A DNA stretch of 36,647 nt from a virus: positions 172,796 to 209,442 of IMG/VR virus record IMGVR_UViG_3300034196_000067. The stretch is one strand, 5' to 3'. Both the position numbers and the translations under genes were made by a program. A model generated the notes under the pieces. That model did no database searches. It had not been told where the DNA came from and was given only the letters and a program-made list of their open reading frames with translations. Positions 7,864 through 30,600 of this stretch are shown piece after piece; position 1 is the first letter of the stretch; every line of letters begins with the position of its first letter.

Positions 7864-8286
7864 ATGGGAAGTCCGGCATACGAACCGCTGACCGCCGAAG
7901 AGATAGAGCAGTTGCTTCCTCGCGTAATATCAGCGGCCTGGCGACGTCGTGAATTCCCCATCCCTGTGTTCGACTGTCATAGCTTCTCCAGTGGTCTCTA
8001 TGGCATCCGAGTGCTCTTCGATGCCGGCATCGAGGAAGACGGTCAGAAGTGGGTGCACGTGTCCATTTCTCGTGAAGACCGTGAGCCCTCTTGGGAAGAC
8101 TTGACCACGGTGAAGCGCCTCTTCCTAGGCGACGAACGCTGGGCCTACCAAGTCATTCCGCCACAGAGCGAGTTCTACAACGTGGGACTGCCTGGACGCG
8201 GTCTACATGTCTTGCATCTCTGGTCGCCTCTCGACAACAAGCCCAGATTGCCCAACTTCCTCCAGGCCAGAGGAGGAACACTGTAG
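7864..8286 (+). CDS. hypothetical protein (140 aa)
   Basis: SD 'gaggagag' 4 nt upstream. Preceded by a 21-codon mini-ORF (7826-7891). Confidence 0.65.
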   Translation: MGSPAYEPLTAEEIEQLLPRVISAAWRRREFPIPVFDCHSFSSGLYGIRVLFDAGIEEDGQKWVHVSISREDREPSWEDLTTVKRLFLGDERWAYQVIPPQSEFYNVGLPGRGLHVLHLWSPLDNKPRLPNFLQARGGTL

Positions 8287-8492: not shown

Positions 8493-8873
8493 ATGATCAC
8501 AGATCAAGAAGTGGAGTTCCAGTTCACTGACTACGGAGGCGAAGCCACTCACTTCTTCGGGATTCGCAAGCTGGGGTTTCTCGAAGAAGGCGGCTTCATC
8601 ATCGTCGGGTACCTATCTCCCGCCGGCGCTCTCCGGAACACTCTCTCAACGAGCATCCCCATCAGCTCAACGGAGTACCGACAGAAGAATGCGACACTGA
8701 CCAGGTACATGCGCAACCTGGACACTGCGATCGTCATCGACGACGACTGGGGCCACGCCTACGCCATCGTAGGCTCCAAGGAGTTCATCGATCAGGTAGT
8801 TGAGGACTGCATCAAGCATAAAGTTCCCAAGGATCTATCCCTCCAACGCCTGCACGACTCAGGAGAGCTCTGA
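8493..8873 (+). CDS. hypothetical protein (126 aa), paralogue of the next gene
   Basis: Shares GIRKLGFLEEGGFIIVGY and DDDWGHAYAIVGSKEFIDQVVEDC with GFRKLGFEVSGHFIIEAF and ANDWGRVYTIRALKILIDLLAAEC in the 8875 gene. Confidence 0.6.
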   Translation: MITDQEVEFQFTDYGGEATHFFGIRKLGFLEEGGFIIVGYLSPAGALRNTLSTSIPISSTEYRQKNATLTRYMRNLDTAIVIDDDWGHAYAIVGSKEFIDQVVEDCIKHKVPKDLSLQRLHDSGEL

Positions 8874-8874
8874 A

Positions 8875-9471
8875 ATGAGCATCAAGAACCAAGAGGTGTC
8901 GTTCTATCTCAAGTATCAAGAGTGGTTCCATGACAAGCTTCAAGATGTCACCCAACACCTCGTCGGGTTCCGCAAACTAGGATTCGAGGTATCAGGCCAC
9001 TTCATCATCGAGGCTTTCACAGTTCCGCCGTCCGAGCGAAGTGCGGGGTATGGTAACTACTACCATGACGTGGCGATCAGCGAACCGCTCTATCGACGCC
9101 ACAAGCCGACGGGAACCTACTACGTGAGAGCTTCTGATGTGGAACTCTCCATCGCCAATGACTGGGGCAGGGTCTACACAATCAGAGCCCTGAAGATCCT
9201 CATCGACCTACTGGCGGCGGAGTGTGAGCGATTCGAGATCCCTCAGAAAGCGGAGGTCTCCGTCAGTGTCGGCGACCTTCTCCGGGAGTCGTTCGAGGCT
9301 GCTCGTAAGACCGACAACGTCGTCTCCGTTCGCAGAGCTATGGACCCAAAGGAGCGAGGTCCTGGCATCGTCAAGCTCTTCCCCGAGCCCATGGTGATCA
9401 ACTACGAGGCATGGCTCGACGAGCATGACCTCTTGCCTGATGCCGAGACGCATCTGGTTGGGAAACCATGA
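8875..9471 (+). CDS. hypothetical protein (198 aa), tandem paralogue of 8493-8873
   Basis: ATG 8875 with SD 'aggaga' 8 nt upstream, 1 nt after the previous stop. See the paralogy evidence above. Confidence 0.6.
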   Translation: MSIKNQEVSFYLKYQEWFHDKLQDVTQHLVGFRKLGFEVSGHFIIEAFTVPPSERSAGYGNYYHDVAISEPLYRRHKPTGTYYVRASDVELSIANDWGRVYTIRALKILIDLLAAECERFEIPQKAEVSVSVGDLLRESFEAARKTDNVVSVRRAMDPKERGPGIVKLFPEPMVINYEAWLDEHDLLPDAETHLVGKP

Positions 9472-9923
9472 ACGAGAACGCAAAGAGGCTGATTGAGAAG
9501 TTCCTCTGCCCTGGTTGTGTCTGTGGCATGAACGTGGACTGCGGACACTACAAGCCTGGTGAGGGAGGCGATGAGAAGCCTGGGTTCGAGTGTCTAGGTC
9601 ATGTGCTCGGAACAGTGCTTATGCCAGGCATCGGGAACATCGCTCTCGGGCTGCCGAAGGGTTTCAACCGTCCCGGATACTGCCCCTTATGCAAGAGGTC
9701 GCCCAACCAGATGCCTGTGCGCCTCTGGCCGGCAGGAACACATCCGAAATGGGATGACTTCAACATCCCAGTCTGGGCTCTAGAGAAGGACGGGTTTCTC
9801 TTCGTTCGAACGGCATGTCCGAGAGTGGCGTACTACTTCGTGGATGTGTTCGAAGGAGGCAAGGCGTCGGAGCTCTGCCCTCGCGCCATCGACATGACGT
9901 CTCAGTACGACAGCTACGACTAG
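9468..9923 (+). CDS. Cys-rich hypothetical protein (151 aa)
   Basis: ATGA overlap with the previous gene. Contains CPGCVCG...DCGHY...C...CPLC. Confidence 0.6.
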   Translation: MNENAKRLIEKFLCPGCVCGMNVDCGHYKPGEGGDEKPGFECLGHVLGTVLMPGIGNIALGLPKGFNRPGYCPLCKRSPNQMPVRLWPAGTHPKWDDFNIPVWALEKDGFLFVRTACPRVAYYFVDVFEGGKASELCPRAIDMTSQYDSYD

Positions 9924-9999
9924 AGCAAGAGTGATGTCTCTTCTGACATAAGATACTGGCAGTAAAAGCTGTTCGAACTCTTACGCAAGGAGAGACACC

Positions 10000-12920: not shown

Positions 12921-13375
12921 TGGGGAGAGGGAAGCCGTACTTCGAAGATGATCCTTTCCTGAAGTGGGTTTCTCAACATCAGGCAGAGCTTGAGACCGCT
13001 CTGCCTGGGAAGCGGATCGCCGTCGGTCCCCTATTCGTGGATGGCACAACGGGTGTGGTGGCTTCAGCGGACACCTACGCCGAGTTGTACGAGAAGGTCA
13101 AGAAGCTAGGGATGCTGGAATCGACCCTGATCGCGAAAGTCCGAGATCCTCGTTCTCTCAAGATGCGGACGGTGGCAGAGCGCCTAGCTCTCATCCCCGC
13201 AGAAGAGAAGGAGAGGCTGAGCAACTTGGCGACTCTCATCATCCATCAAGCGCACAACGAGGACGTGGAGGCTGCCAAGCGTGTCATCCTCAGAATCCTC
13301 CAAGGCACCTTCCTCGCAGGGCGTGAAGGGGAATGGTTCATCGATCCACAGAAGAATGGAGAAGATCCACTGTGA
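12920..13375 (+). CDS. hypothetical protein (151 aa)
   Basis: SD 'ggaggaagg'. ATG overlaps the previous TAA. Confidence 0.65.
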   Translation: MGRGKPYFEDDPFLKWVSQHQAELETALPGKRIAVGPLFVDGTTGVVASADTYAELYEKVKKLGMLESTLIAKVRDPRSLKMRTVAERLALIPAEEKERLSNLATLIIHQAHNEDVEAAKRVILRILQGTFLAGREGEWFIDPQKNGEDPL

Positions 13376-13677
13376 AGAGAAAGCCAAAGGAGTGGGGAGC
13401 AGAAGCCCTTGGGGATCTCATCCTCAAGAAGGTTCGTAACAAAGAGATGCGGGCTAACCTAGCAATCGCAGCAGTTCGCCTGGCAGAGGAAGAGGAGCGT
13501 GAGGTCATCATAGCCTTCCACAACATGGGCTACGCGATGGCACGTGGAGATGCGCAAGCTCACTCCTCTCCCTCGTACAAGGAGCACGTCAATACGATGG
13601 TGGACAGGGCAGCGTTCTACCGCGAGCTCTCCGAGTATATCTGGGACAGGAAGGCCTCACGTAAGAAGGGAGAATGA
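13372..13677 (+). CDS. hypothetical protein (~101 aa), GTG start
   Basis: GTGA overlap with the previous stop. The track ATG at 13333 would overlap by 43 nt. Confidence 0.45.
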   Translation: MKRKPKEWGAEALGDLILKKVRNKEMRANLAIAAVRLAEEEEREVIIAFHNMGYAMARGDAQAHSSPSYKEHVNTMVDRAAFYRELSEYIWDRKASRKKGE

Positions 13678-14120
13678 TCATGCTACTCACCGCGCAGAAT
13701 GTTCATAACACCGTCATCGACTGTCTCTTCGAGGAGGATACGCCGGAGAACCGCGCACGATCGGTCATCGTCGAGGGCATCCTCTACAACTTCGGCTTCG
13801 ATCCAACGAAGCTGGAGAAGCACAAGGAGGATATCGCAGACATGCTCAGGCAGTTGCCTCCGACCTTCAAGCAAGAGGTTGGAGGAGGGTGGAGCTTCCT
13901 CAATGCCTGCATCCGCGCAGTCGACGGAGTTCAGTGGGGAGAGCATCGAGACATGGATGCCCTCTTCTCCCTCGGTATGGCTGTGGGGCTCGTGAAGAGT
14001 TGTTTGCCGAGGGAGCAGTGGTCCCAGCTCCCCAACGGCATGCCGTACTACGTGATCTTGGAGAGCCCCAAGAAGGAGGAAGCATGCGCGCATTCTACTT
14101 CGGATGCTTCGGCGAGCTAG
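13674..14120 (+). CDS. hypothetical protein (148 aa)
   Basis: SD 'aagggagaa'; ATGA overlap. Confidence 0.65.
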   Translation: MIMLLTAQNVHNTVIDCLFEEDTPENRARSVIVEGILYNFGFDPTKLEKHKEDIADMLRQLPPTFKQEVGGGWSFLNACIRAVDGVQWGEHRDMDALFSLGMAVGLVKSCLPREQWSQLPNGMPYYVILESPKKEEACAHSTSDASAS

Positions 14121-14461
14121 GCCACTACTGGTGGAGTACTTCTCTTCGAGAGAAGATCTTCGACACCCCGCAGGAGCTGGGTAGAGGGCTCGCCATTGAT
14201 GGGATCTATGCACCCTTCGGGAGAGAGATCGAAGGCTCTGCGCAGATCGTCTACATGCGGCCCCCGAACCAGCACAAGGCCTGGACCATCATCGCCTTCT
14301 GGGACCGGTCCGTAGACAAGAGATCTGGATCCAACAGCGCCTTCGTACTCGAAGGCGTCTATCCCTTCGAGGACGCACTTCACATCGCGAAGGGGCAGTT
14401 CCCTGACGTCTTCAAGCGCTTCACGTTCCCCATCACTCGATGGGAGCCACCCGCTGTATGA
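14084..14461 (+). CDS. hypothetical protein (125 aa)
   Basis: ATG 14084 with strong SD 'aaggaggaagc'. Confidence 0.55.
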   Translation: MRAFYFGCFGELGHYWWSTSLREKIFDTPQELGRGLAIDGIYAPFGREIEGSAQIVYMRPPNQHKAWTIIAFWDRSVDKRSGSNSAFVLEGVYPFEDALHIAKGQFPDVFKRFTFPITRWEPPAV

Positions 14462-14472
14462 AAGGAACACAG

Positions 14473-14727
14473 ATGCCCAAGAAGCCGAATCAAGCTGCGC
14501 CGAAGAAGTCGAAGAGCGTCACTCTGAAGGAGCTGCGGGTCTCTCTCGGGAGGACCGTCAAGGAGGTGGAGAAGGATACCTTCGCCGTGAGTGGTTGGGT
14601 GAGTGAGGCAGAGAAGCCCAGGGATCATCGCCTCTCCACCATCAAATCCTACATCCAAGCGCTGGGAGGAGAGTTGGAGCTCTTCGTCCGCTTCGGCAAG
14701 AAGAAGCGTCTCCAGCTCGACATCTAG
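14473..14727 (+). CDS. putative XRE-like helix-turn-helix DNA-binding protein (84 aa)
   Basis: Segment VTLKELRVSLGRTVKEVEKDTFAVSGWVSEAEKPRDHRLSTIKSYIQALGGELELFVRF resembles the HTH_XRE pattern (L..L....g.t..e.A......is..E.G.r.P.l.tl..ia.aLg..l.l). This is a pattern match only. Confidence 0.45.
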   Translation: MPKKPNQAAPKKSKSVTLKELRVSLGRTVKEVEKDTFAVSGWVSEAEKPRDHRLSTIKSYIQALGGELELFVRFGKKKRLQLDI

Positions 14728-14735
14728 GAGGCACC

Positions 14736-15038
14736 ATGGAGAACATCATCTCTCACCTGCACAGCAATCCAAAGCTGTTGGTCACAGCCATGGTCACGGT
14801 TTGTGAGACAGCGGCGATGCTATTCATCTTCCTCGTCGTTCGTCCGTCCTGGACCATCGCAGGTCTCTCGTATCTCGGTATCCTGTTGTTGATGGCAGGA
14901 GCCGGGCTCATGAGCGTGCAGATGAAGATCGCTGGATGGGAGACGGCGATCGTCGGCCTTCTTGTCCTTACCTACGTCCGTCATCACATCTTCTCAAAGC
15001 CAGTTCGCAGACCACGTATGCGAGCGGATCGTTCATGA
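14736..15038 (+). CDS. small integral membrane protein (100 aa)
   Basis: SD 'taggagg'. Three hydrophobic helices. Confidence 0.65.
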   Translation: MENIISHLHSNPKLLVTAMVTVCETAAMLFIFLVVRPSWTIAGLSYLGILLLMAGAGLMSVQMKIAGWETAIVGLLVLTYVRHHIFSKPVRRPRMRADRS

Positions 15039-15571
15039 CATCGAATGAACCGAAGCATGCCGTGACGCACATCTTGGCCGAGTGGCGCAAGGAAGTGGAG
15101 AAGGAGCTTCGGGGTTCTGAAGCCGTTTGCACCAACATTTACAACGACCCGAAGGACAGGTCTGTCTATAACGAACGGGCCTGGCGGAGCGCGCGGATTC
15201 TTCGACGCATCGCCGAACTGGAACAGGCTGCGGCAACCACCATCCCCACACAGAGCGTGGGGATGGAAGCGACGTGCCAATGCGGTCGGGTGAAGCAGTC
15301 TACAGAACCAGAGCAAGGATGGAACGCTCAAGGCATCGGTGAGGATCTGCCTGGAGGGTACATGCTGATCCACAACCTCAACGAGGACTGCTACGTCGAG
15401 CCGCCGACCTATGAGACTGGAGAAGGAAGAGCTGAAGCACTGGAAGCAGAACGTTCCACTCGATGCGTTGGCACAGTCTGGACGAACGAGGCACGAGCCT
15501 ACGTCGATGAGATCCTGACTGCTCTTGAGACCGCAGAGGCAGAGGTCCGGCGACTGGGCACGAAGAAGTGA
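15035..15571 (+). CDS. hypothetical protein (178 aa)
   Basis: ATGA overlap with the previous stop. Confidence 0.6.
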   Translation: MTSNEPKHAVTHILAEWRKEVEKELRGSEAVCTNIYNDPKDRSVYNERAWRSARILRRIAELEQAAATTIPTQSVGMEATCQCGRVKQSTEPEQGWNAQGIGEDLPGGYMLIHNLNEDCYVEPPTYETGEGRAEALEAERSTRCVGTVWTNEARAYVDEILTALETAEAEVRRLGTKK

Positions 15572-15576
15572 GATCA

Positions 15577-15603
15577 AAAGGAGAGCTCCGTCTCTCCTTT
15601 TTA
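15577..15603 (+). terminator. intrinsic terminator AAAGGAGAG-ctccgt-CTCTCCTTT + TT
   Basis: Seen directly. Confidence 0.5.
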
Positions 15604-15693
15604 CCTCTTCACTCATTGAGAAAAGAATCTCCACTACAGGGAATAAGAGAACGAGGTCAAGATGACTCTTCTTTCACCTCAACGGGAGACCGA

Positions 15694-16101
15694 ATGAATC
15701 GATTGGAGTTGACCCAGAAGAAGCGAGAGTCGTTGAAGGACCTCGTGCAGAAGGGACACAGCGACAAGAGGGAGATCCAGGAGATCCTCACGAGACGCTT
15801 TGGGAGCCCTCTCTCCGACGGCACGTTCTACAAGACGCTGAAGGAACTGCTCGGGCAGCGTGGAGGGCTGCGGCTCGTCAAGCGGAACCCTGGCCGGTGG
15901 AGTCGAATCCCCAAGGCGGGGGGCGTTGTGGAGACAGCGGTCCCCAAGGAGCTCGCCGAGCTCATCGAGCAAGTCATCCACGCTGCCCAGCGCGTCGGCG
16001 TGGACGTGGTCAACATCGACGCCGACAAGAAGAAGTTCAACATCCATCAGAAGGAGAGAGATGTGGAGATCTCTCTCGATGACGAGAGGCCGGAGGAATG
16101 A
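15694..16101 (+). CDS. hypothetical protein (135 aa)
   Basis: ATG with SD 'aacgggaga' downstream of the terminator. Confidence 0.55.
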   Translation: MNRLELTQKKRESLKDLVQKGHSDKREIQEILTRRFGSPLSDGTFYKTLKELLGQRGGLRLVKRNPGRWSRIPKAGGVVETAVPKELAELIEQVIHAAQRVGVDVVNIDADKKKFNIHQKERDVEISLDDERPEE

Positions 16102-16718: not shown

Positions 16719-17603
16719 GTGGCTCTTCTCATCTCTTCTACTGAACTTCCTGAGCATTGGTACAACCGAGTCGCTACCTCGATCGAGCGCCTTCACTGGA
16801 AGGTGACATCGGTGGTGGCTGTATCTTTGGTAGTCGTCGTCGCATCTACCGACGCGGCTATCGATCGGCTTGCCGGCTCCGACATCAACCTCGTCTTGCT
16901 GTACCTCGTGCCTGTAGCCTTTGGCGCCTGGACAGGAAGAGCACGAATGGGCTGGGTCATCTCAACACTCAGCGCTCTCAGCGCCGTAGGTCCACACCTC
17001 ATATCCTCTCCAGAGCAATCTCTCGCGCTCAGCCTGAACATGGGCGTCGATATGCTCGTCTTCCTCTCCATCAGCTACGTGCTACCAGGCCTACGCAGCC
17101 TCCTAGAACACGAGAAACTGGTCTCTCGCACAGATCATCTCACAGGGGTTGCTAACTCCAGAGCGCTTCGAGAGAGGGCTTTGCGAGAGATACTGCGAGC
17201 ACGCAAGCACGGGTACGAGCTGTCGGTTGCGTATCTAGACGTAGACGATTTCAAAGCCATCAACGATAAGCACGGGCATGCAGGAGGCGATCGCATCCTC
17301 AAGCTCATCAGCTCTATCACTCGACAAGCTCTACGCTCCACAGACATGGTTGCGAGAGTAGGAGGAGATGAGTTCGCTCTACTCCTACCAAACACAGGAG
17401 CTGCGGCTGCGAAGCGCGTCGTGGAGAGAGTCCGTTCTGAGGTGTATCGAGCATCCCAGGCCGCTGGGGTAGAGGTGACGCTAAGCATCGGAGTGAAGAC
17501 CTTTGCTGATATCCCATTGAGCGTAGAAGAACTCGTCGAGTCCGTGGATCTTCTCATGTACTCCGTGAAGAGAGACCGGAAGGACGACGTCGTCTACGCC
17601 TGA
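16719..17603 (+). CDS. membrane-anchored GGDEF-domain diguanylate cyclase (294 aa), GTG start
   Basis: The N-terminal ~120 aa carries 3-4 hydrophobic helices. The C-terminal domain has the signature RTDHLTGVANSRAL...YLDVDDFKAINDKHGHAGGDRILK...RVGGDEFALLLP. The active-site motif reads GGDEF (intact). Confidence 0.85.
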   Translation: MALLISSTELPEHWYNRVATSIERLHWKVTSVVAVSLVVVVASTDAAIDRLAGSDINLVLLYLVPVAFGAWTGRARMGWVISTLSALSAVGPHLISSPEQSLALSLNMGVDMLVFLSISYVLPGLRSLLEHEKLVSRTDHLTGVANSRALRERALREILRARKHGYELSVAYLDVDDFKAINDKHGHAGGDRILKLISSITRQALRSTDMVARVGGDEFALLLPNTGAAAAKRVVERVRSEVYRASQAAGVEVTLSIGVKTFADIPLSVEELVESVDLLMYSVKRDRKDDVVYA

Positions 17604-24079: not shown

Positions 24080-24400
24080 TCAGCCTCCCTTCTGTCTTGC
24101 TGCCCTACGCTTGAGATACGAGAGGATCGTCTCTTCATCTTCGTCTTGCTTCACCATGAGCTGGATGGCCTCATCTTCCCCAAAGACATCAAGGTCTTCA
24201 TCTTTCAGCTTCGGGCGCTTCTTCGCCTCAACCGAGTCACTGGGAAGAACATGAACTCTCCCCAGGACATCGAGCATGAAGACAGCGGTACCGCAGCTTT
24301 TGAGAGCTGCGGTGGCCGCGATCCCGACTGCATAGAGGCTCGGGCGGTGCCCGCTCACGAGCTTGCTGAGAACCAAGTCCTCTTCGACCTTCTCCTCCAT
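24080..24400 (-). CDS. hypothetical acidic protein (106 aa), first gene of left late operon
   Basis: SD GGAGTGGAGGA precedes the ATG on the minus strand. The C-terminal half is D/E-rich. Confidence 0.5.
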   Translation of the reverse strand: MEEKVEEDLVLSKLVSGHRPSLYAVGIAATAALKSCGTAVFMLDVLGRVHVLPSDSVEAKKRPKLKDEDLDVFGEDEAIQLMVKQDEDEETILSYLKRRAARQKGG

Positions 24401-24419: not shown

Positions 24420-24533
24420 GACAGTGCTACGCTGTCATTCTGCCACGTCCAGGCAGGTGAAAACCCCTTTCACTTCATGATACCAAAGCCGGTTTCGGTG
24501 CGGTAAACGTCGTGAAGTGAAAGCCCCTTTCAC
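24420..24533. promoter_or_regulatory. divergent control region with two copies of palindromic operator GTGAAA(A/G)CCCCTTTCAC (24457-24473, 24517-24533) plus IR GACAG-N7-CTGTC (24420-24436)
   Basis: Seen directly. The two 17-mers differ at one base. Each is itself an inverted repeat. The flanks CTTTCACTTCA and TGAAGTGAAAG form a longer-range inverted repeat. Confidence 0.5.
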
Positions 24534-24572
24534 CCTCGTACCCGGAACGGTGGCATCTTACATCAACTCGTC

Positions 24573-24764
24573 TTGAACAGGAGGTTGAGCATGCCGGTAG
24601 GGTTCCCTCGCATGGAATTCCATCCCAGTCCGGATACCAGAAGGTACATCGAGAAGCTTCGAGAAGAGCTTTCGAAGAGCGCCAAGAAGCGAATTACCCT
24701 AAGTGAGGTTATCGAAGAGATTCTCCGCATGTACATCGAAAAGGCTGAGCGCGAGAGAGGGTAG
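24573..24764 (+). CDS. small ribbon-helix-helix-like DNA-binding protein (63 aa), candidate repressor
   Basis: SD 'acaggagg'. C-terminal RITLSEVIEEILRMYIEKAERE resembles CopG/Arc-type RHH. It sits next to the palindromic operators. Confidence 0.45.
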   Translation: MNRRLSMPVGFPRMEFHPSPDTRRYIEKLREELSKSAKKRITLSEVIEEILRMYIEKAERERG

Positions 24765-24848
24765 TTCTCAAGAAGCATCTTGCTTTTTCAGGTCTTGATG
24801 CTAAGAGATGCATGAGAAGAAGTTCTTCTCTCAAGAAAGGAAGAAGTC

Positions 24849-25454
24849 ATGCCTCGTGGCATTTACGATCGCAGTCAGATGAAGCCGAAGGGGACGGCCA
24901 AGACCGCCAAGGCGGCCGAGCCCACCACCGGCGGTGGGTCCGCTCTCACCAACTCCCCTCTGAAGAGGAAGTACGTGAGGAAGGCCACCACACAAGCTCT
25001 CAAGGCTGTCCTCGACTCTCCCAAAGGGTTCGAGGCGTCTGGAACGGCGCCAGAGTCTGACCTCGGTGGCGTGGTCTTCTCTTCCGTCGGAATGCTCTAC
25101 ACCCATCTCGGTCAGCTCCACTCCGCAAGGGTGCAGCTCTCTCAGCAGAGCATCGACCACAACCCCAAGGTCATCGCCGTCATCGACGAAGAGATCATCG
25201 CCACGCTCGGCTCTCTGAAGATCTGGAGACAGAACACCTTCAAGACCGAGAGCAAGGAGCCGGAAGCGCAGACCCAGAGCATCCCGGTGATCCCGCCGGC
25301 CCTTGTCGCAGCGGCCCCAGCGCCTGCCCCGGCACCCGCTCCAGCGCCTGCCCCTGCGTTCCAGGGAGCCTCTACGATGACTCCGCCCCCCGCACCGCTC
25401 CCCTTCTCGCCCCAGACGGTCGAGGAAGTGCGCCGCGCATCCGGCCAGGCGTAA
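24849..25454 (+). CDS. Lys/Ala-rich histone-H1/AlgP-like protein with C-terminal (AP)n repeat (201 aa)
   Basis: SD 'aaggaag'. N-terminus MKPKGTAKTAKAAEPTTGG...KRKYVRKATTQALKA; C-terminus AAAPAPAPAPAPAPAPAF. Confidence 0.6.
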   Translation: MPRGIYDRSQMKPKGTAKTAKAAEPTTGGGSALTNSPLKRKYVRKATTQALKAVLDSPKGFEASGTAPESDLGGVVFSSVGMLYTHLGQLHSARVQLSQQSIDHNPKVIAVIDEEIIATLGSLKIWRQNTFKTESKEPEAQTQSIPVIPPALVAAAPAPAPAPAPAPAPAFQGASTMTPPPAPLPFSPQTVEEVRRASGQA

Positions 25455-25478
25455 CAAAACCGGCCGAGCAGAGACTCG

Positions 25479-25507
25479 AAGGGCCCCGTTTCGGGGCCCT
25501 TTTTCTT
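25479..25507 (+). terminator. intrinsic terminator AAGGGCCCCG-ttt-CGGGGCCCTT + TTTTCTT
   Basis: Seen directly. Confidence 0.7.
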
Positions 25508-25532
25508 CCCACGAGAGGCGTCTTCCTAGAGA

Positions 25533-25556
25533 ATCCCCTTGAAACTGCAAGGGGAT
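25533..25556 (+). promoter_or_regulatory. 9-bp perfect hairpin ATCCCCTTG-aaactg-CAAGGGGAT occluding the csp Shine-Dalgarno (AAGGGG) 5 nt upstream of the ATG
   Basis: Seen directly. Candidate temperature- or structure-dependent translational control element. Confidence 0.4.
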
Positions 25557-25560
25557 CCAC

Positions 25561-25773
25561 ATGGCGCTACGAGGTACAGTGAAGTGGTTCAACGATGCAA
25601 AGGGCTACGGGTTCATCAAGCCTGACGATGGGGGGAAGGACATCTTTGTCCACCACTCCGTCATCAAGATGGATGGGTTCCGCACTCTCTCTGAAGGGGA
25701 GCGCGTCGAGTACACCATCGAGGCCGGGGCGAAGGGCCCGCAGGCCGTAAACGTCTCTCGCATCTCAGAGTAG
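25561..25773 (+). CDS. cspA: cold-shock protein, CspA family (70 aa)
   Basis: [65 protein letters not shown]. Carries the canonical RNP1 (KGYGFI) and RNP2 (VFVHH-like) cold-shock-domain motifs. Confidence 0.9.
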
Positions 25774-25790
25774 TGCTCAAGACAAGGGAA

Positions 25791-25827
25791 GGCCGCGCTC
25801 CCGGGGGGAAGAAGCGCGGCCTTCTTG
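25791..25827 (+). terminator. intrinsic terminator GGCCGCGCT-loop-AGCGCGGCC + TTCTTG
   Basis: Seen directly. Confidence 0.55.
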
Positions 25828-25854
25828 TCGCCCTCCTGCCTCGTGGGGGGAGGG

Positions 25855-26571
25855 CTACGCTCCGATGGCTGCTTGAGCGGATGAGCCCGTGACCAGCGCG
25901 AGCTGAGCGACAGCGATGGGGACCACTCGCTCAGGCTGGAGTGCCACCTGCTCTTGCACCACACACCCCTGCGCGTCTGTCGCGATGGAGTGGGAGGGGA
26001 TGTACGTCTCCTCCAAGTAGAAGGCGCAGAGCGTGGTCTCGTTCGAGTCCTTCATGTAGACGAGAAGACCACACGGTTGCGAGAAGAGGTCCGACGCCAG
26101 GTTCAGGTAGATGTTCTCGAAGCCCGGCGGAATCTTCACGTCGTGTTGGTTGGCGACGCTCGCCATGATGTTCGGATCCACCCCGAACGTCGGAACGAGG
26201 GTGGGGGCCGGATCCTGGTAGAAGGCGTACATCACCCGGAGGATCGAGGGGCCGTTGTAGAGCACCCGTCCGAAGCCGGCCTGAGCGACGGTGCGCCCGG
26301 CGATGAAGTAGCTCCGCTCGCTCCCGAGCTCCCAGAAACGAGCGAAGGCCTTGTTGTGTGCGAGGTTGAAGTTCTGGACGATGCCGATGGGCAACGCCCA
26401 GTTCTGCTTGCCGACGGACGCCGCGGCTGCTGCTGATCCTCCCACGGCGGCGAGCCGGGGCGGACCAGCGGCGAGCATGGTGAAGACGCCCGAGGCGAAA
26501 CGGCCCTCTCCCAGGGCCGACGAGTTGTCGACTTTCTGGGAGTAGGGCTGCCAGTTCGTGATGGAGGACAT
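25855..26571 (-). CDS. structural protein (238 aa), candidate tail tube protein
   Basis: Second gene downstream of the sheath. The segment WALPIGIVQNFNL...FARFWELGSERSYFIAGRT loosely recalls, from memory, the T4 gp19 tube (ALPAGIVEKIPV...). Assignment is tentative. Confidence 0.5.
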   Translation of the reverse strand: MSSITNWQPYSQKVDNSSALGEGRFASGVFTMLAAGPPRLAAVGGSAAAAASVGKQNWALPIGIVQNFNLAHNKAFARFWELGSERSYFIAGRTVAQAGFGRVLYNGPSILRVMYAFYQDPAPTLVPTFGVDPNIMASVANQHDVKIPPGFENIYLNLASDLFSQPCGLLVYMKDSNETTLCAFYLEETYIPSHSIATDAQGCVVQEQVALQPERVVPIAVAQLALVTGSSAQAAIGA

Positions 26572-26611
26572 GAGCCGCTCCTTGAGTGAGGGTTGACGTC
26601 AACGCCTGTTG

Positions 26612-27282: not shown

Positions 27283-30200
27283 TCAGACCACGAGCGTGAG
27301 GCGGATGTAGTTGCAGGGGTACGGGACGTCGAGGGTCACGTCGATCATCACGGTGTCCGGGTTCTCCGGGTCCTGGATGATGTTGTTGAGCTGCGCTCCG
27401 TTGAGGATGCCATTGTCCTTCAGGAACTCCAGCATGCCGGTGATGGTCGTCCCGATGGTGTCGAGGAAGACTGAGGTGATGTTCTGCCGGCCGATGAAGC
27501 GACGGATACCTGCCCGAAGGAACTTGGCGACGAAGTCGACGTCCTTCGTGATCGAGAGCTCTCGCGTCTCGATGGTCGATGTGTCGGTGGAGAGCTGGTG
27601 CCGGCAGAATACCGGTCCGCCCTGCACCTCCTGCATGAGGATGAAGGCACCTCCACCCGCCATCTGATCGAGCTGCTTCTTGGTGAACTTCTCCGTCCCC
27701 ACCACCCCGGTGAGGCCGGTCATGGGGTAGTTGGTGAGTCCCTGCTGCGGAGGCAGGCCAGCGATCATGCCTGCCACGACCGCACAGGCGTAGTAGCCGG
27801 GGACTTCCTTCTCCAGACCCGCGACGGTGGTCTTCACCGTATCGGGGAAGAAGGAGTAGGCCCGCCGGTTCGCGATGCCAGAGTTCAGCGTCGCGACGGT
27901 AGAGGCGACGAGGGAGTAGTCCGGTTTGGCGGGGGAAGAGCCTGCGATCATCAGGCTCGCGCCGCGCACATTCATGCTCCAAGCCGCATCGAGGATGTCG
28001 GTTGGAAGGGCTACGACCTCGTAGAAGTAGTCGTCGTTCTCTCCGGCCGCGAAGGTGGTACGGAGATTCACGAGGCCGCCGGTCACCGAGGAGATTGAGT
28101 AACGGTAGAAGACGCCGTTCCAGTTGAACTCGATGTAGACGCCATTCGCCACGGTGAAGGGCAGTGACGGATTGATTCCGGCATCGACGAGACCAGCTTG
28201 AGGCGTGACGTCGACGAGGAGCTGGTCGGCAGTGGCAGTCGAGTTCGCAGAGACGCCACTCACGACCGCCCTTGGGGCGCGGGTAGTGGGCTGCGTCTTG
28301 TTGAAGAGGACGATTCGCTCGCCCATCTCCTCGGGCTGGCTCATCAGCGTGACGTGGGTGTTGAAGAGCTGATGCACCACATCATTCTGGGTGAGCAGTG
28401 CGATGGTGTAGACCTCTTCCGACTCCAAGAAGTCGGCTGCTCTGGCGTAGGCGAGCTCGGTTCCTTCCGGAGCGGAGCCAGAGATCTCGTCGACCCCGAG
28501 GGCACCGACCACGAATCCTGGGCAGTTGAGAAGAGCCAGGTAGGTACCGAAGGCGAGAGGGTTGGCGTCCGTCACCGGGTCCATCACCGAGGTGAGGGTG
28601 CTGGTGTCTTGGAGATGGACGACTCCCGCGACTGCCGCGGACGCCGAGACATCGCGACGAAGTCCCTTGAACTGGATGTAGAGAGATGCCGGGCTGGTGG
28701 CGAAGTCGAGGGGGTAGCCAGTGACTGGATCGCGGACGAGATCCGGACCGATCACCAGGTTGCTGCTCACATCGACGTAGGCGTCAGGATTCGGACGCCC
28801 TGTTCCGGCTGTCGCGGTCTGCGCTGCCGTGAAGCCGAGAGCCGTGAGAGCGGTTCCGTCGACGATGTAGACCAGAGATCCCGCGCCAGCAAGGGTGCTG
28901 GTGAGGACGAGGTTCGTCCCCGCTCCGTTCTTCGAAGCGACTGTGCCACCGACGAGCTGGTTGACGGTGTCGACGGCGATGTCGAGCGAGGTATCGGTGA
29001 AGCCCACATCGTAGACGTGAGCGCCTCGGTCTAGAGAGAATCGGAGGTTCTCTCCAGTGAGCCCAGAGAACGAAGCGTCGGTTCCGGTACCGCTGGTGTC
29101 CGCGCTGGTGGAGTAGCCGAGGACCGTGGCCGCGGAGCTCGTCGCCTTGAAGGTGATGCTCTGAAGCCTTCCCGTCTTGGCGGTGGCAAGCTTCAGCTTG
29201 CCGGAATCGACAGAGGCAACGACGCCCGTGATGCTGACGGCCGCAGCCATTCCGGCGACGGTGGTGACGGGGGTGGAGCTTGTGAAGGTGAACGTTCCGA
29301 CTGTCGCGACTCCATCCACCGTGAGGATGTAATCGATCCGGAGACCGGCGAGAGCCACGCCTCCGGACGGATCCGGGACGGCCCCGCCTTCGACCGAGGC
29401 GGCCACTGCTGCGGAAGCCGCAGCCGATCCCGTGACGGTGGACTTGGTTGCCGAAACGGTGGGCGAGAGCCCCGTTGCCTTGAACCACACGTACTGCGGC
29501 GCGAAGGGGGCAGCGTCGATGGGAAGACCGAGAAGAGCGTCGTCGTAGGTCTTCGAGAGGTAGCGGCCTTCCGTGTCAGCGGTAGAGAGGGCAGCGTCGA
29601 TGGTGCCCATCCGGAAGCGAGTCGGATCGACGCGAGAGATCTCACCGCTCTTGAGCCGCGTGCCGTCGGCCCAGATCTGATCCCCTGCCAGGATCGGGAT
29701 GCCGTTGGTGCCGAAGGTGATGGCGGCAGAGCGTGCATGCGTCAGCGCGCCTGTGGCGACGTTGATCATGCCGGCATGAGAGGCCCAGGCCGAGTCTGCC
29801 GAAGAGACCCCACCCACGCTGTAGTCGCCACGGAAGAACTCGATCCAGGCGCTCTGTGTGGTGTTGTTCTGGAGGTTGTATGCACGGTAGCCGGCGCCGC
29901 ACACCCTCTCTTCGGTTCCGACAGAGCCGACGGAGTTCCAGCCGATGCCGAGAAGAGCATTCGCCGTCCCACCCGCGCGCACCGTGATTGAGGAGAGCGC
30001 CCCGTAGCTCGGAGAGGAGAGACGGACGCCTGTGACGGAATCCCCCGACACAGTGACCGAAGCGATCGCCATCCCAAAGGCGTTGTTGATGACGGTGACG
30101 ATGTCGGCCGGCGCGTAAGGAGACGAGCCCGGAAACGGGATGGTCACGTCTTGCGTGGTGTTGGCCGTAGTCGGCTGGTCGATGGCGAGAACGAGGTTCT

Positions 30201-30600
30201 GCCCACCGATGGAGAAGCTGGTTCCGACGATGTCGAGGACCGCCTTGGACGCCACATGGCTTGCGACCAGGAAGCCTTCTCCAGGATTCATCAGGAGCTC
30301 AGCGAGCCGACCTCCTGTGTAGAGGAAGGGACGGATCGAAGCCGTCTGGATGTCGACCTCGTCGATGTTGCCTCGCGGGTTCGGGAAAGACGAATGGGTG
30401 ATCGTCTTTCCGAGCTGCGCGTAAGCACCGTACTTCGCCTTCGAGTTGATGGTTCCATCGGAGGTGAGGACGTTGATGACCTCGAAGGCCGCACCGACGA
30501 TGACCGGCGCGAGCGTCGGCGTGAGGAACGTCGGCGACGTCTTGCGCGCGGTCTGAATGACATCGACGCCTGGCCGGGCGATCTCAGCAGTGGCGGCCAT
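27283..30600 (-). CDS. contractile tail sheath protein, unusually large (1105 aa) with inserted surface domains
   Basis: N-terminus ARPGVDVIQTARKTSPTFLTPTLAPVIVGAAFEV fits the sheath N-terminal pattern (PGVyv.E.....s.t.vA.vG.a). C-terminus ...GGGAFILMQEVQGGPVFCRHQLSTD...SITKDVDFVAKFLRAGIRRFIGRQN...VMIDVTLDVPYPCNYIRLTLVV fits the sheath C-terminal domain. The central ~600 aa contain three related beta-sandwich-like segments. SD AAAGGAG precedes the ATG. Confidence 0.85.
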   Translation of the reverse strand: MAATAEIARPGVDVIQTARKTSPTFLTPTLAPVIVGAAFEVINVLTSDGTINSKAKYGAYAQLGKTITHSSFPNPRGNIDEVDIQTASIRPFLYTGGRLAELLMNPGEGFLVASHVASKAVLDIVGTSFSIGGQNLVLAIDQPTTANTTQDVTIPFPGSSPYAPADIVTVINNAFGMAIASVTVSGDSVTGVRLSSPSYGALSSITVRAGGTANALLGIGWNSVGSVGTEERVCGAGYRAYNLQNNTTQSAWIEFFRGDYSVGGVSSADSAWASHAGMINVATGALTHARSAAITFGTNGIPILAGDQIWADGTRLKSGEISRVDPTRFRMGTIDAALSTADTEGRYLSKTYDDALLGLPIDAAPFAPQYVWFKATGLSPTVSATKSTVTGSAAASAAVAASVEGGAVPDPSGGVALAGLRIDYILTVDGVATVGTFTFTSSTPVTTVAGMAAAVSITGVVASVDSGKLKLATAKTGRLQSITFKATSSAATVLGYSTSADTSGTGTDASFSGLTGENLRFSLDRGAHVYDVGFTDTSLDIAVDTVNQLVGGTVASKNGAGTNLVLTSTLAGAGSLVYIVDGTALTALGFTAAQTATAGTGRPNPDAYVDVSSNLVIGPDLVRDPVTGYPLDFATSPASLYIQFKGLRRDVSASAAVAGVVHLQDTSTLTSVMDPVTDANPLAFGTYLALLNCPGFVVGALGVDEISGSAPEGTELAYARAADFLESEEVYTIALLTQNDVVHQLFNTHVTLMSQPEEMGERIVLFNKTQPTTRAPRAVVSGVSANSTATADQLLVDVTPQAGLVDAGINPSLPFTVANGVYIEFNWNGVFYRYSISSVTGGLVNLRTTFAAGENDDYFYEVVALPTDILDAAWSMNVRGASLMIAGSSPAKPDYSLVASTVATLNSGIANRRAYSFFPDTVKTTVAGLEKEVPGYYACAVVAGMIAGLPPQQGLTNYPMTGLTGVVGTEKFTKKQLDQMAGGGAFILMQEVQGGPVFCRHQLSTDTSTIETRELSITKDVDFVAKFLRAGIRRFIGRQNITSVFLDTIGTTITGMLEFLKDNGILNGAQLNNIIQDPENPDTVMIDVTLDVPYPCNYIRLTLVV

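Follow-up and report, generated by a model that had tools for sequence, protein, structure and literature searches.

We propose that a small island of opposite-strand genes in an uncultured phage encodes a ribbon-helix-helix (RHH) protein whose paired operators lie at two divergent promoters, through which it would control both its own gene and a leftward operon of tail genes, and that the cold-shock gene in the same island (csp) is transcribed separately. On the evidence below, we lean somewhat towards this interpretation. The island is in a 36,647-nucleotide stretch of IMG/VR virus record IMGVR_UViG_3300034196_000067 (positions 172,796 to 209,442; this whole stretch is referred to as the window). 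The window matches part of a 209,442-bp JGI metagenome contig, and also a 109-kb Logan contig, with 100% identity, and its source is an uncultured myovirus-like phage of approximately 209 kb. The three genes, all on the plus strand, encode proteins of 57, 201, and 70 amino acids (aa). They are the RHH gene (24591-24764), the 201-aa gene (24849-25454), and csp (25561-25773), and they sit between the sheath and tube genes and the next tail operon, which are on the minus strand. An initial annotation had described just such a plus-strand trio amid minus-strand tail genes, and the open reading frame (ORF) coordinates bear out both its layout and its strands.

Relatives of the island were found by using a 238-aa conserved virion protein encoded beside it (25855-26571, minus strand) as an anchor, which yielded 19 related viral loci, and further contigs were found through the RHH family. 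Only one of these, the 1,774-bp L020, is a close diverged relative, and it is the basis of the footprint comparisons that follow.

The divergent control region spans 190 bp between the ATG codon of the RHH gene and that of a 106-aa gene, the first of the leftward tail operon (24080-24400, minus strand, with a GGAGGA ribosome-binding site). This is slightly longer than the 170 bp first annotated. Two near-identical 17-bp palindromes can be read from its sequence, GTGAAAACCCCTTTCAC at 24457-24473 (the core of site 1) and GTGAAAGCCCCTTTCAC at 24517-24533 (the core of site 2). They start 60 bp apart, with a gap of 43 bp between them. Both extend to 22-bp inverted sites of the form GGTGAAA-N4-(C/T)TTTCACTTCA, and they are nested in a longer 25-nucleotide inverted repeat (24456-24480 and 24510-24534). 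Chance would supply 0.21 copies, the observed count was reached in 0 of 100 shuffles, and there is no third copy within the 36.6-kb window at three or fewer mismatches. The initial annotation had reported this pair, about 43 bp apart, and it is indeed present and beyond chance expectation.

Comparison with L020 showed which parts of this region are kept. Site 1 (24456-24477), which consists of GTGAAA-N5-TTTCAC with conserved flanks, is 95.5% identical, whereas the 35-bp, weakly palindromic spacer between the sites (24478-24512) is only 46% identical, its length being kept without indels but its sequence not. Site 2 (24513-24534), which consists of GTGAAAG-CCC-CTTTCAC and a conserved TGAA flank, has intact arms in L020 and a spacer that is one base longer. 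No other locus has the exact palindrome arms, but positional homologues appeared when the divergent regions of the L001 lineage were aligned. The L204 sites are GTGAAG-ACAAC-CTTCTC and GGGAAG-GCTAG-CTTCTC, and L206 has GAGAAG-CCTGG-CTTCGC. Homologues of site 2 of the GAGAAG-N5-CTTCTC type are in L204, L206, L001, and L207, and positional homologues of site 1 are in L204 and L206, with a degenerate copy in L001. The palindromes of L204, L206, and L001 persist as G(T/A/G)GAA(A/G)-N5-(C/T)TTC(A/T)C. The lack of operator conservation in related genomes that the initial annotation had named as refuting its reading was thus not observed, and the twin palindromes behave like conserved cis-regulatory sites: the two-site geometry recurs even where the RHH protein is only about 33% identical, and against L020 the arms are kept while the spacers and center drift.

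We infer the promoter assignments from comparative conservation, because a generic sigma-70 scan gave none. The leftward operon would need its own promoter here, since the tube operon ends at strong hairpins. The best -10 candidates are CATCTT for the RHH gene (promoter P_R; 24554-24559, plus strand) and a conserved xAGAAx block for the leftward operon (promoter P_L), which reads CAGAAT on the minus strand at 24437-24442. CATCTT is part of a conserved CATCTTA that is unique in the window and invariant in it and in L020, L001, L002, L204, L206, and L207. The equivalents of the P_L element are GAGAAT in L020 and TAGAAG or TAGAAC in the L001 lineage. With these assignments, site 1 would lie over the -35 region of P_L, and the center of site 2 is approximately 41 bp upstream of the predicted RHH transcript start. 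The spacing of sites and -10 candidates is also conserved. The site-to-site distance is 60 to 62 bp in five lineages (the window, L020, L204, L206, and L001), and in the same five the center of site 2 is 31 to 32.5 bp from CATCTT, with L207 deviating. From the center of site 1 to xAGAAx the distance is 24.5 to 25.5 bp in the window, L020, L204, and L206 and 21.5 bp in L001.

The likeliest binder is encoded directly beside these sites. The 57-aa protein is predicted to adopt the ribbon-helix-helix DNA-binding fold, an assignment that we accept as well supported. A model built on 24 homologues (a monomer model, pLDDT 87.5) has an extended N terminus followed by two helices, and so the protein has the strand-helix-helix topology in a domain of about 45 residues. 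Matches to known families were weak: Pfam RHH_1 was found in 2 of 10 family members at E = 0.016, which is under the cut-off, CopG-family chains in the PDB scored E = 0.037 to 0.05, and the PHROG Arc-like family scored E = 0.077. Arg7 of the beta-strand is nearly invariant across the family. The L020 protein is 86% identical and has the same beta-strand (RMEFHP), and those of the L204, L206, and L001 lineage are about 33% identical with the beta-strand RTEVRF. The initial annotation had called this a 63-aa RHH-like protein. The predicted structure agrees with the fold but the length should be amended. The ORF table runs from a TTG at 24573, giving 63 aa, and the ATG at 24591 is the likelier start because GGAGG (24580-24584) sits 6 nucleotides upstream of it and because homologues and database entries begin there. 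In L001, L204, and L206, CATCTTAGCCCAA is invariant immediately before the RHH ATG, and there is no ribosome-binding site there. If CATCTT is the -10 element, the RHH mRNA of that lineage would be leaderless.

How might the protein and the sites work together? The half-sites are 11 bp apart center to center, which is one helical turn, and spacing of this kind suits two RHH dimers on one face of the DNA, as at the Arc, Mnt, and CopG operators. In addition, the outer half-site bases shift along with the variable beta-strand residue, whereas the GAA core is retained, as is the nearly invariant Arg7. Together these features make a good circumstantial case for binding of both sites by the RHH protein and for co-regulation of its own gene and the leftward tail operon. 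RHH tetramers would occupy both palindromes, each of which would cover the -35 region of a different promoter. These two promoters face outward, one driving the RHH gene and the other the leftward operon that starts with the 106-aa gene, so that occupancy of the sites would couple RHH expression to that of the leftward tail genes. The sign of this regulation could go either way. Most RHH proteins repress transcription. However, neither promoter has a recognizable -35 hexamer, activators classically bind at -41, and sites near -41 and -35 would fit activation equally well.

Several observations weigh against operators for the RHH protein. The sigma-70 scan called no promoter in the control region, and P_L and P_R have no recognizable -35 hexamers and only weak -10 candidates. 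The lineages with short control regions (L007 and L009 to L011) have no twin sites and at most one different palindrome, and site 1 has been lost from L207. A rigid dimer of dimers might not tolerate the additional spacer base that site 2 has in L020. Finally, both arms of the palindromes change in concert between lineages, which fits a hairpin in RNA or DNA equally well, and a protein other than RHH, such as the 201-aa partner or a host factor, could occupy the sites.

The last two of these points correspond to two alternatives. One is that the palindromes act as hairpins of RNA or single-stranded DNA, such as 5'-leader stem-loops that stabilize or process the divergent transcripts. The control region does fold, as three small hairpins or one long one, with -52.7 kcal/mol on the plus strand (z = -5.2) and -50.4 kcal/mol on the minus strand (z = -3.2), and a hairpin would accommodate the extra base in L020 as well as the paired changes in the arms. 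Palindromes right after -10-like motifs also recur in this phage group (P0, described below, the csp hairpin, and site 2 of the L001 lineage). Furthermore, there are alternative -10-like hexamers just inside the sites, TATCAT (24477-24482, minus strand) and GTAAAC (24503-24508; TATAAC in L020). However, the single stems are weak (-5.6 and -6.2 kcal/mol), and in L020 a T.G to C.A change disrupts the long hairpin in its inner part. The arm sequences are invariant between the window and L020, beyond what mere pairing would ask for. With the best-conserved -10 candidates, both sites would be upstream of the transcript starts, and no Rfam family matched at the palindromes. We consider hairpins to be an unlikely explanation, although one that deserves some weight.

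The other alternative is that the sites are real operators with a different binder, either the 201-aa partner or a host or other phage regulator. The 201-aa gene is the constant companion of the RHH gene, the first 60 residues of its product are basic (pI 10.6), and its helical hairpin would serve for dimerization. Also, the GAA/TTC core of the half-sites is constant despite RHH proteins at 33% identity. Against this, the model of the 201-aa protein has no recognizable DNA-binding fold, and the RHH protein is the only clear DNA-binding protein encoded beside the sites. In addition, the 11-bp half-site spacing fits RHH tetramers, and the outer half-site bases covary with the RHH beta-strand. 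Therefore, we rate another binder as rather unlikely, and we continue to favor the RHH protein at both sites. To our knowledge, the host boxes of the CRP, LexA, PhoB, and Fur types do not fit the palindromes in spacing or orientation. When the pattern GGTGAAA-N4-7-TTTCACTTCA was scanned in public collections, 56 viral and at least 120 metagenome stretches matched, with single matches among those listed. We took these matches as chance, and those examined had no similarity to any cassette protein.

A third palindrome, P0 (GACAGTG-CTA-CGCTGTC, 24420-24438), is just downstream of the candidate leftward -10 element. The initial annotation had picked out its core, GACAG-N7-CTGTC, and it is there. 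On its own this core is weak, since 5-bp inverted repeats are common, and it extends to seven pairs. P0 is still palindromic in L020, with one arm change in each direction, and it is a putative functional element. A small inverted repeat, CTGCC-N7-GGCAG (24440-24456), is placed between site 1 and the leftward -10 candidate, and a CAGG...CCTG repeat is at the equivalent place in the L001 lineage.

The second gene of the island encodes a member of an unannotated, mostly disordered, clade-specific family. A word-indexed protein search with the 201-aa protein gave one match only, and an exhaustive HMMER search uncovered the family, which has 30 cluster representatives of 140 to 228 aa, none of them annotated (0/30). 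Three modules recur: a basic N terminus with MPRGxYDRS, a helical hairpin at residues 78-130, and, behind an Ala/Pro linker, a C-terminal PLPF(T/S)PQ..EV peptide. Confidence in the AlphaFold model is confined to residues 78-130. We found no match to this protein in Pfam, the PDB, NCBIfam, or cultured phages, and family and structure searches gave no linker-histone or nucleoid-protein match. The protein had been described as H1-like, and this does not hold: lysine is 6.5% overall, and apart from its one helical hairpin the protein is mostly disordered. The (AP)n run in the same description is real, but the lysine richness was overstated, the basic region being confined to the first 60 residues.

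The 201-aa gene may have a promoter of its own. A candidate, TTGCTT-N16-TAAGAG (24780-24807, plus strand), lies within the conserved GATGCTAAGAGATGC, and both of its blocks are kept in L020 while the spacer between them varies. We have low confidence that it drives the 201-aa gene. A motif of the (A/G/C)ATAAGA(A/G) type occurs 40 to 125 nucleotides upstream of several plus-strand genes, at about 15640, 17636, 17793, and 18407 (four intergenic regions in the interval from 15.6 to 18.5 kb) and at 24802-24807 before the 201-aa gene. The L010 RHH gene has CATAAGAAG at the equivalent position. This motif may be a phage-specific -10-like promoter element.

The strict pairing of the two genes invites a broader proposal. 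The RHH and 201-aa proteins might together form an undescribed two-part transcription factor of jumbo-size phages, in which the RHH protein binds the operator and the disordered partner bridges to RNA polymerase or another host machine through MPRGxYDRS and PLPFTPQ..EV. The distal tail operon would then be switched on from promoters without -35 elements, and the cold-shock protein and the chaperones found in related islands (GroES and MoxR/VWA) would assist late expression and assembly. We regard this as speculative and, as a whole, quite improbable.

The third gene, csp, encodes by all sequence indications a canonical cold-shock-domain protein of the CspA family, as initially annotated. Its product matches Pfam CSD over residues 4-67 (1.2e-30), PHROG 729 (1.4e-23), and a CspE/CspA-like NCBIfam model (4.7e-33). 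The best NCBIfam match is CspE-like at 113 bits, which is under the E. coli equivalog cut-off of 120. The protein is a single domain of about 70 aa with an RNP1 motif (KGYGFI) and an RNP2 motif (IFVHH).

Comparative evidence indicates that csp has its own conserved sigma-70-like promoter (25506-25534, plus strand), with a -35 element TTCCCA (25506-25511), a 17-nucleotide spacer, and a -10 element GAGAAT (25529-25534). The pattern T(T/A)NNCA-N17-GA(G/C/A)(A/G)AT, with exact 17-nucleotide spacing, was in all 12 distinct csp upstream sequences (L011 has GAGGAT), and a terminator precedes it in every one of them. It has a single match in the window. Against L020, identity is 100% in both hexamers and 65% in the spacer. 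The generic sigma-70 scan missed this promoter because its hexamers fall short of the consensus, with 8 of 12 positions matching. In L003, L004, and L005 (where csp starts near 9122-9128, minus strand), the -10 element is GAGAAT or GACAAT, 6 nucleotides before a GTG codon, with no ribosome-binding site. This suggests that the csp mRNA of these three loci may be leaderless.

A perfect 9-bp inverted repeat, ATCCCCTTG-AAACTG-CAAGGGGAT (25533-25556, plus strand), overlaps three elements of csp: its -10 element, its ribosome-binding site, and the point at which its transcript is predicted to start. The two arms (25533-25541 and 25548-25556) fold with -13.9 kcal/mol (z = -4.5). The 3' arm contains the ribosome-binding site, AAGGGGA (25549-25555), in agreement with the initial annotation. 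The initial annotation had also suggested that this stem gates translation by structure or temperature, which would make it an RNA thermometer or a thermosensor of the cspA type. In favor of this, any transcript that includes 25533-25556 would have its ribosome-binding site fully paired, the stem is 100% conserved in L020, and the region matches the Rfam cspA model (RF01766) at 84.1 bits, above its gathering threshold of 78. However, the in silico pairing probability of the ribosome-binding site was 1.00 at 4 to 25°C and 0.99, 0.97, and 0.91 at 37, 60, and 80°C, respectively. The melting check that had been proposed for this hairpin thus gave, in silico, no opening in the physiological range. 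The stem stays closed above 80°C, and cooling would merely make it tighter, the opposite of what a cold-shock gene would need. The RF01766 match also owes little to the leader. The coding sequence and terminator alone give 78.5 of the 84.1 bits, about 90 model positions of the 5' leader are deleted in the alignment, and many leader pairs are non-standard, so we read the match as csp coding homology with no thermosensor leader. Furthermore, most related csp leaders do not sequester the ribosome-binding site. Finally, the conserved promoter predicts a transcript start at approximately 25541-25542, the end of the 5' arm, so the csp mRNA itself would be without the stem and its ribosome-binding site would be mostly free (pairing probability 0.35). 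The hairpin would exist as RNA only in transcripts that start upstream. A gated switch at csp is thus very improbable.

The palindrome could instead be a 24-bp DNA operator over the -10 element and start, at which binding of a dimeric regulator would silence csp in some phase of infection. The repeat is a perfect 9-6-9 palindrome that overlaps both of these elements. Its stem and loop, and the -10 element too, show 100% identity to L020, whereas the spacer between -35 and -10 and the four bases before the ATG vary. Inverted repeats abut the -10 element in L007 and L009 also. However, this operator has no candidate binder, the palindrome is unrelated in sequence to the GTGAAA sites, and the inverted repeats of related loci differ in sequence and position. 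The full identity of this block in L020 suggests constraint, but that constraint could be on the promoter, the initial transcribed region, or the ribosome-binding site equally well as on an operator. We consider a csp operator improbable. The reading that we prefer remains that csp is transcribed apart from the other two genes, from a start inside the 5' arm, giving an mRNA whose ribosome-binding site would be open. On this reading, the hairpin either forms in read-through transcripts alone or works at the DNA level.

Separate transcription is also suggested by the hairpins that punctuate the island, which the initial annotation had credited with its own terminators. Those at 25479-25501 and 25788-25824 were confirmed by folding. 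The first is in an intrinsic terminator after the 201-aa gene (25479-25505, plus strand), with a 10-bp GC-rich stem (11 pairs in the predicted fold) followed by TTTTT. Its hairpin has -23.5 kcal/mol (z = -3.5), and it has both the GC-rich stem and the U-run of a canonical terminator. The stem is kept in L020 through compensating changes, and related loci have a terminator at the same place. The second is one of two hairpins (25788-25824 and 25827-25858) that together make up a two-way terminator region where the convergent csp and 238-aa genes meet. It has -32.9 kcal/mol (z = -4.6), its U-run is poor on both strands, and it is 100% identical in L020. An Rfam 6C match at 25784-25861 (minus strand) scored 39.9 bits against a threshold of 47 and coincides with these C/G-rich hairpins, and so we dismissed it as probably due to chance. 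After the RHH stop codon there is also a small hairpin, AAGCA-TCT-TGCTT, with a T-run (24773-24788, plus strand), whose stem is kept in L020 with a changed loop. It is possibly a weak terminator or attenuator. Because of the terminator after the 201-aa gene, the hairpin and T-run after the RHH gene, and the TTGCTT-N16-TAAGAG block, the three genes may be separate transcription units, although our confidence in this is low.

We also asked how far the island is conserved. Profile searches found the RHH gene with the 201-aa gene directly 3' of it in all 16 fully covered loci of the closer clade. The csp gene is next in 11 of the 16 (it is absent in L001, L204, and L207), and it is at the same position in two incomplete contigs, L008 and L012. 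Of the seven distant loci (L013 to L019), the six whose region beyond the anchor was covered (all but L017) have a same-strand gene after the anchor and no cassette. L015 and L017 have marginal RHH-profile matches only, far from the anchor. Some islands of the closer clade carry additional genes. That of L007 has GroES (Cpn10, 1.7e-33; 9183-9473, minus strand), that of L004 has a MoxR-type AAA_5 ATPase and a VWA/CoxE-like protein (13154-15834, minus strand), and that of L010 has two endonuclease VII genes flanking csp (8813-9205 and 9522-9956, minus strand). By gene content, the island is an expandable hot spot that gathers chaperone-type and mobile genes. Its GC content is 48 to 68%, similar to its neighbors, and this and its clade-wide presence rule out a recent foreign acquisition. 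The idea that it is a moron can thus be set aside, since the island is old and conserved across the clade. From these comparisons, it is a conserved accessory and regulatory unit with an RHH and 201-aa core, to which csp is attached in most relatives. A near DNA search found no cultured phage relatives, and a distant DNA search gave csp-to-csp matches only, at 68 to 70% identity.

The surroundings of the island are those of a tail gene cluster. The sheath gene (27283-30600, 1,105 aa) matches PHROG 279 (1.6e-16) and, weakly, Pfam Phage_sheath_1. Next on the minus strand come a 213-aa gene and then the 238-aa gene, which is therefore two genes downstream of the sheath gene. The 238-aa protein is probably the tail tube, a label that comes from synteny alone. 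It has a distant homologue in Salmonella phage Arash, which is annotated as a virion structural protein and is at the same position. In the 40-bp gap directly upstream of the 238-aa gene is a perfect 12-bp palindrome, GTTGACGTCAAC (26592-26603). To the left of the island, also on the minus strand, are genes of 106, 85, 214, and 448 aa and one for a Laminin_G_3 protein. The 106-aa protein had no match in the family libraries searched, and its homologues are syntenic beside the island in eight related loci. Elsewhere in the window, a 294-aa protein (16719-17603, plus strand) has a strong GGDEF diguanylate cyclase domain (Pfam 3.2e-35, and several PHROGs), which suggests that the phage may alter cyclic-di-GMP signaling in its host. 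A 140-aa protein (7864-8286, plus strand) matches DUF7694 (7.5e-19), and the majority of the remaining genes in the window are without any family match.

The closest functional analogue of the RHH locus is the Arc/Mnt region of Salmonella phage P22, together with other autoregulated RHH loci. Arc and Mnt share the fold of the island protein but have no detectable sequence homology to it. They have one operator per regulator, whereas the island has two near-identical sites 60 bp apart, each over a candidate -35 region. Their target is an antirepressor, whereas the putative target here is a tail-gene operon of a jumbo-size phage. In contrast to regulators of the CopG, ParD, TacA, and NikR type, the island RHH protein has no toxin or metal-sensing partner. 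The invariant neighbor of its gene encodes an unrelated disordered protein, and the match to Pfam RHH_1 is weak, as described above. The E. coli cspA gene likewise has a structured region before its start, and the island sequence scores above the threshold of the thermosensor model. However, the E. coli cspA leader is about 160 nucleotides long, and the coding region begins near position 155 of the RF01766 model, whereas the island leader is approximately 20 nucleotides from the predicted start and its stem was unresponsive to temperature in silico. Virus-encoded CspA-family genes have been reported as putative auxiliary genes (PMC13656477). Other viral cold-shock proteins (PHROG 729) are likewise phage-borne single domains of 70 aa with RNP1 and RNP2, but the island gene has a fixed clade-wide position and its own conserved promoter and is beside chaperone-type insertions. 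Text searches of the literature gave no description of the gene triad or of the 201-aa family, and a comparative review of jumbo phages has no mention of cold-shock or RHH proteins.

RHH regulators, phage cold-shock genes, and divergent operator-promoter regions are already well known, and the island overturns nothing. Two points may be of mild interest, the orphan protein linked to the RHH protein and the conserved two-site design of the divergent promoters. The 201-aa family, with about 30 sequence clusters, is strictly RHH-linked and unannotated, and it deserves a function. The island also marks a conserved insertion hot spot for cold-shock, GroES, and MoxR/VWA genes. If the RHH protein does bind the twin sites, this would be a compact and testable case of an uncultured phage of about 200 kb that places some of its tail genes under a small regulator dedicated to them, and the conserved geometry points to the precise mutations with which to examine it.

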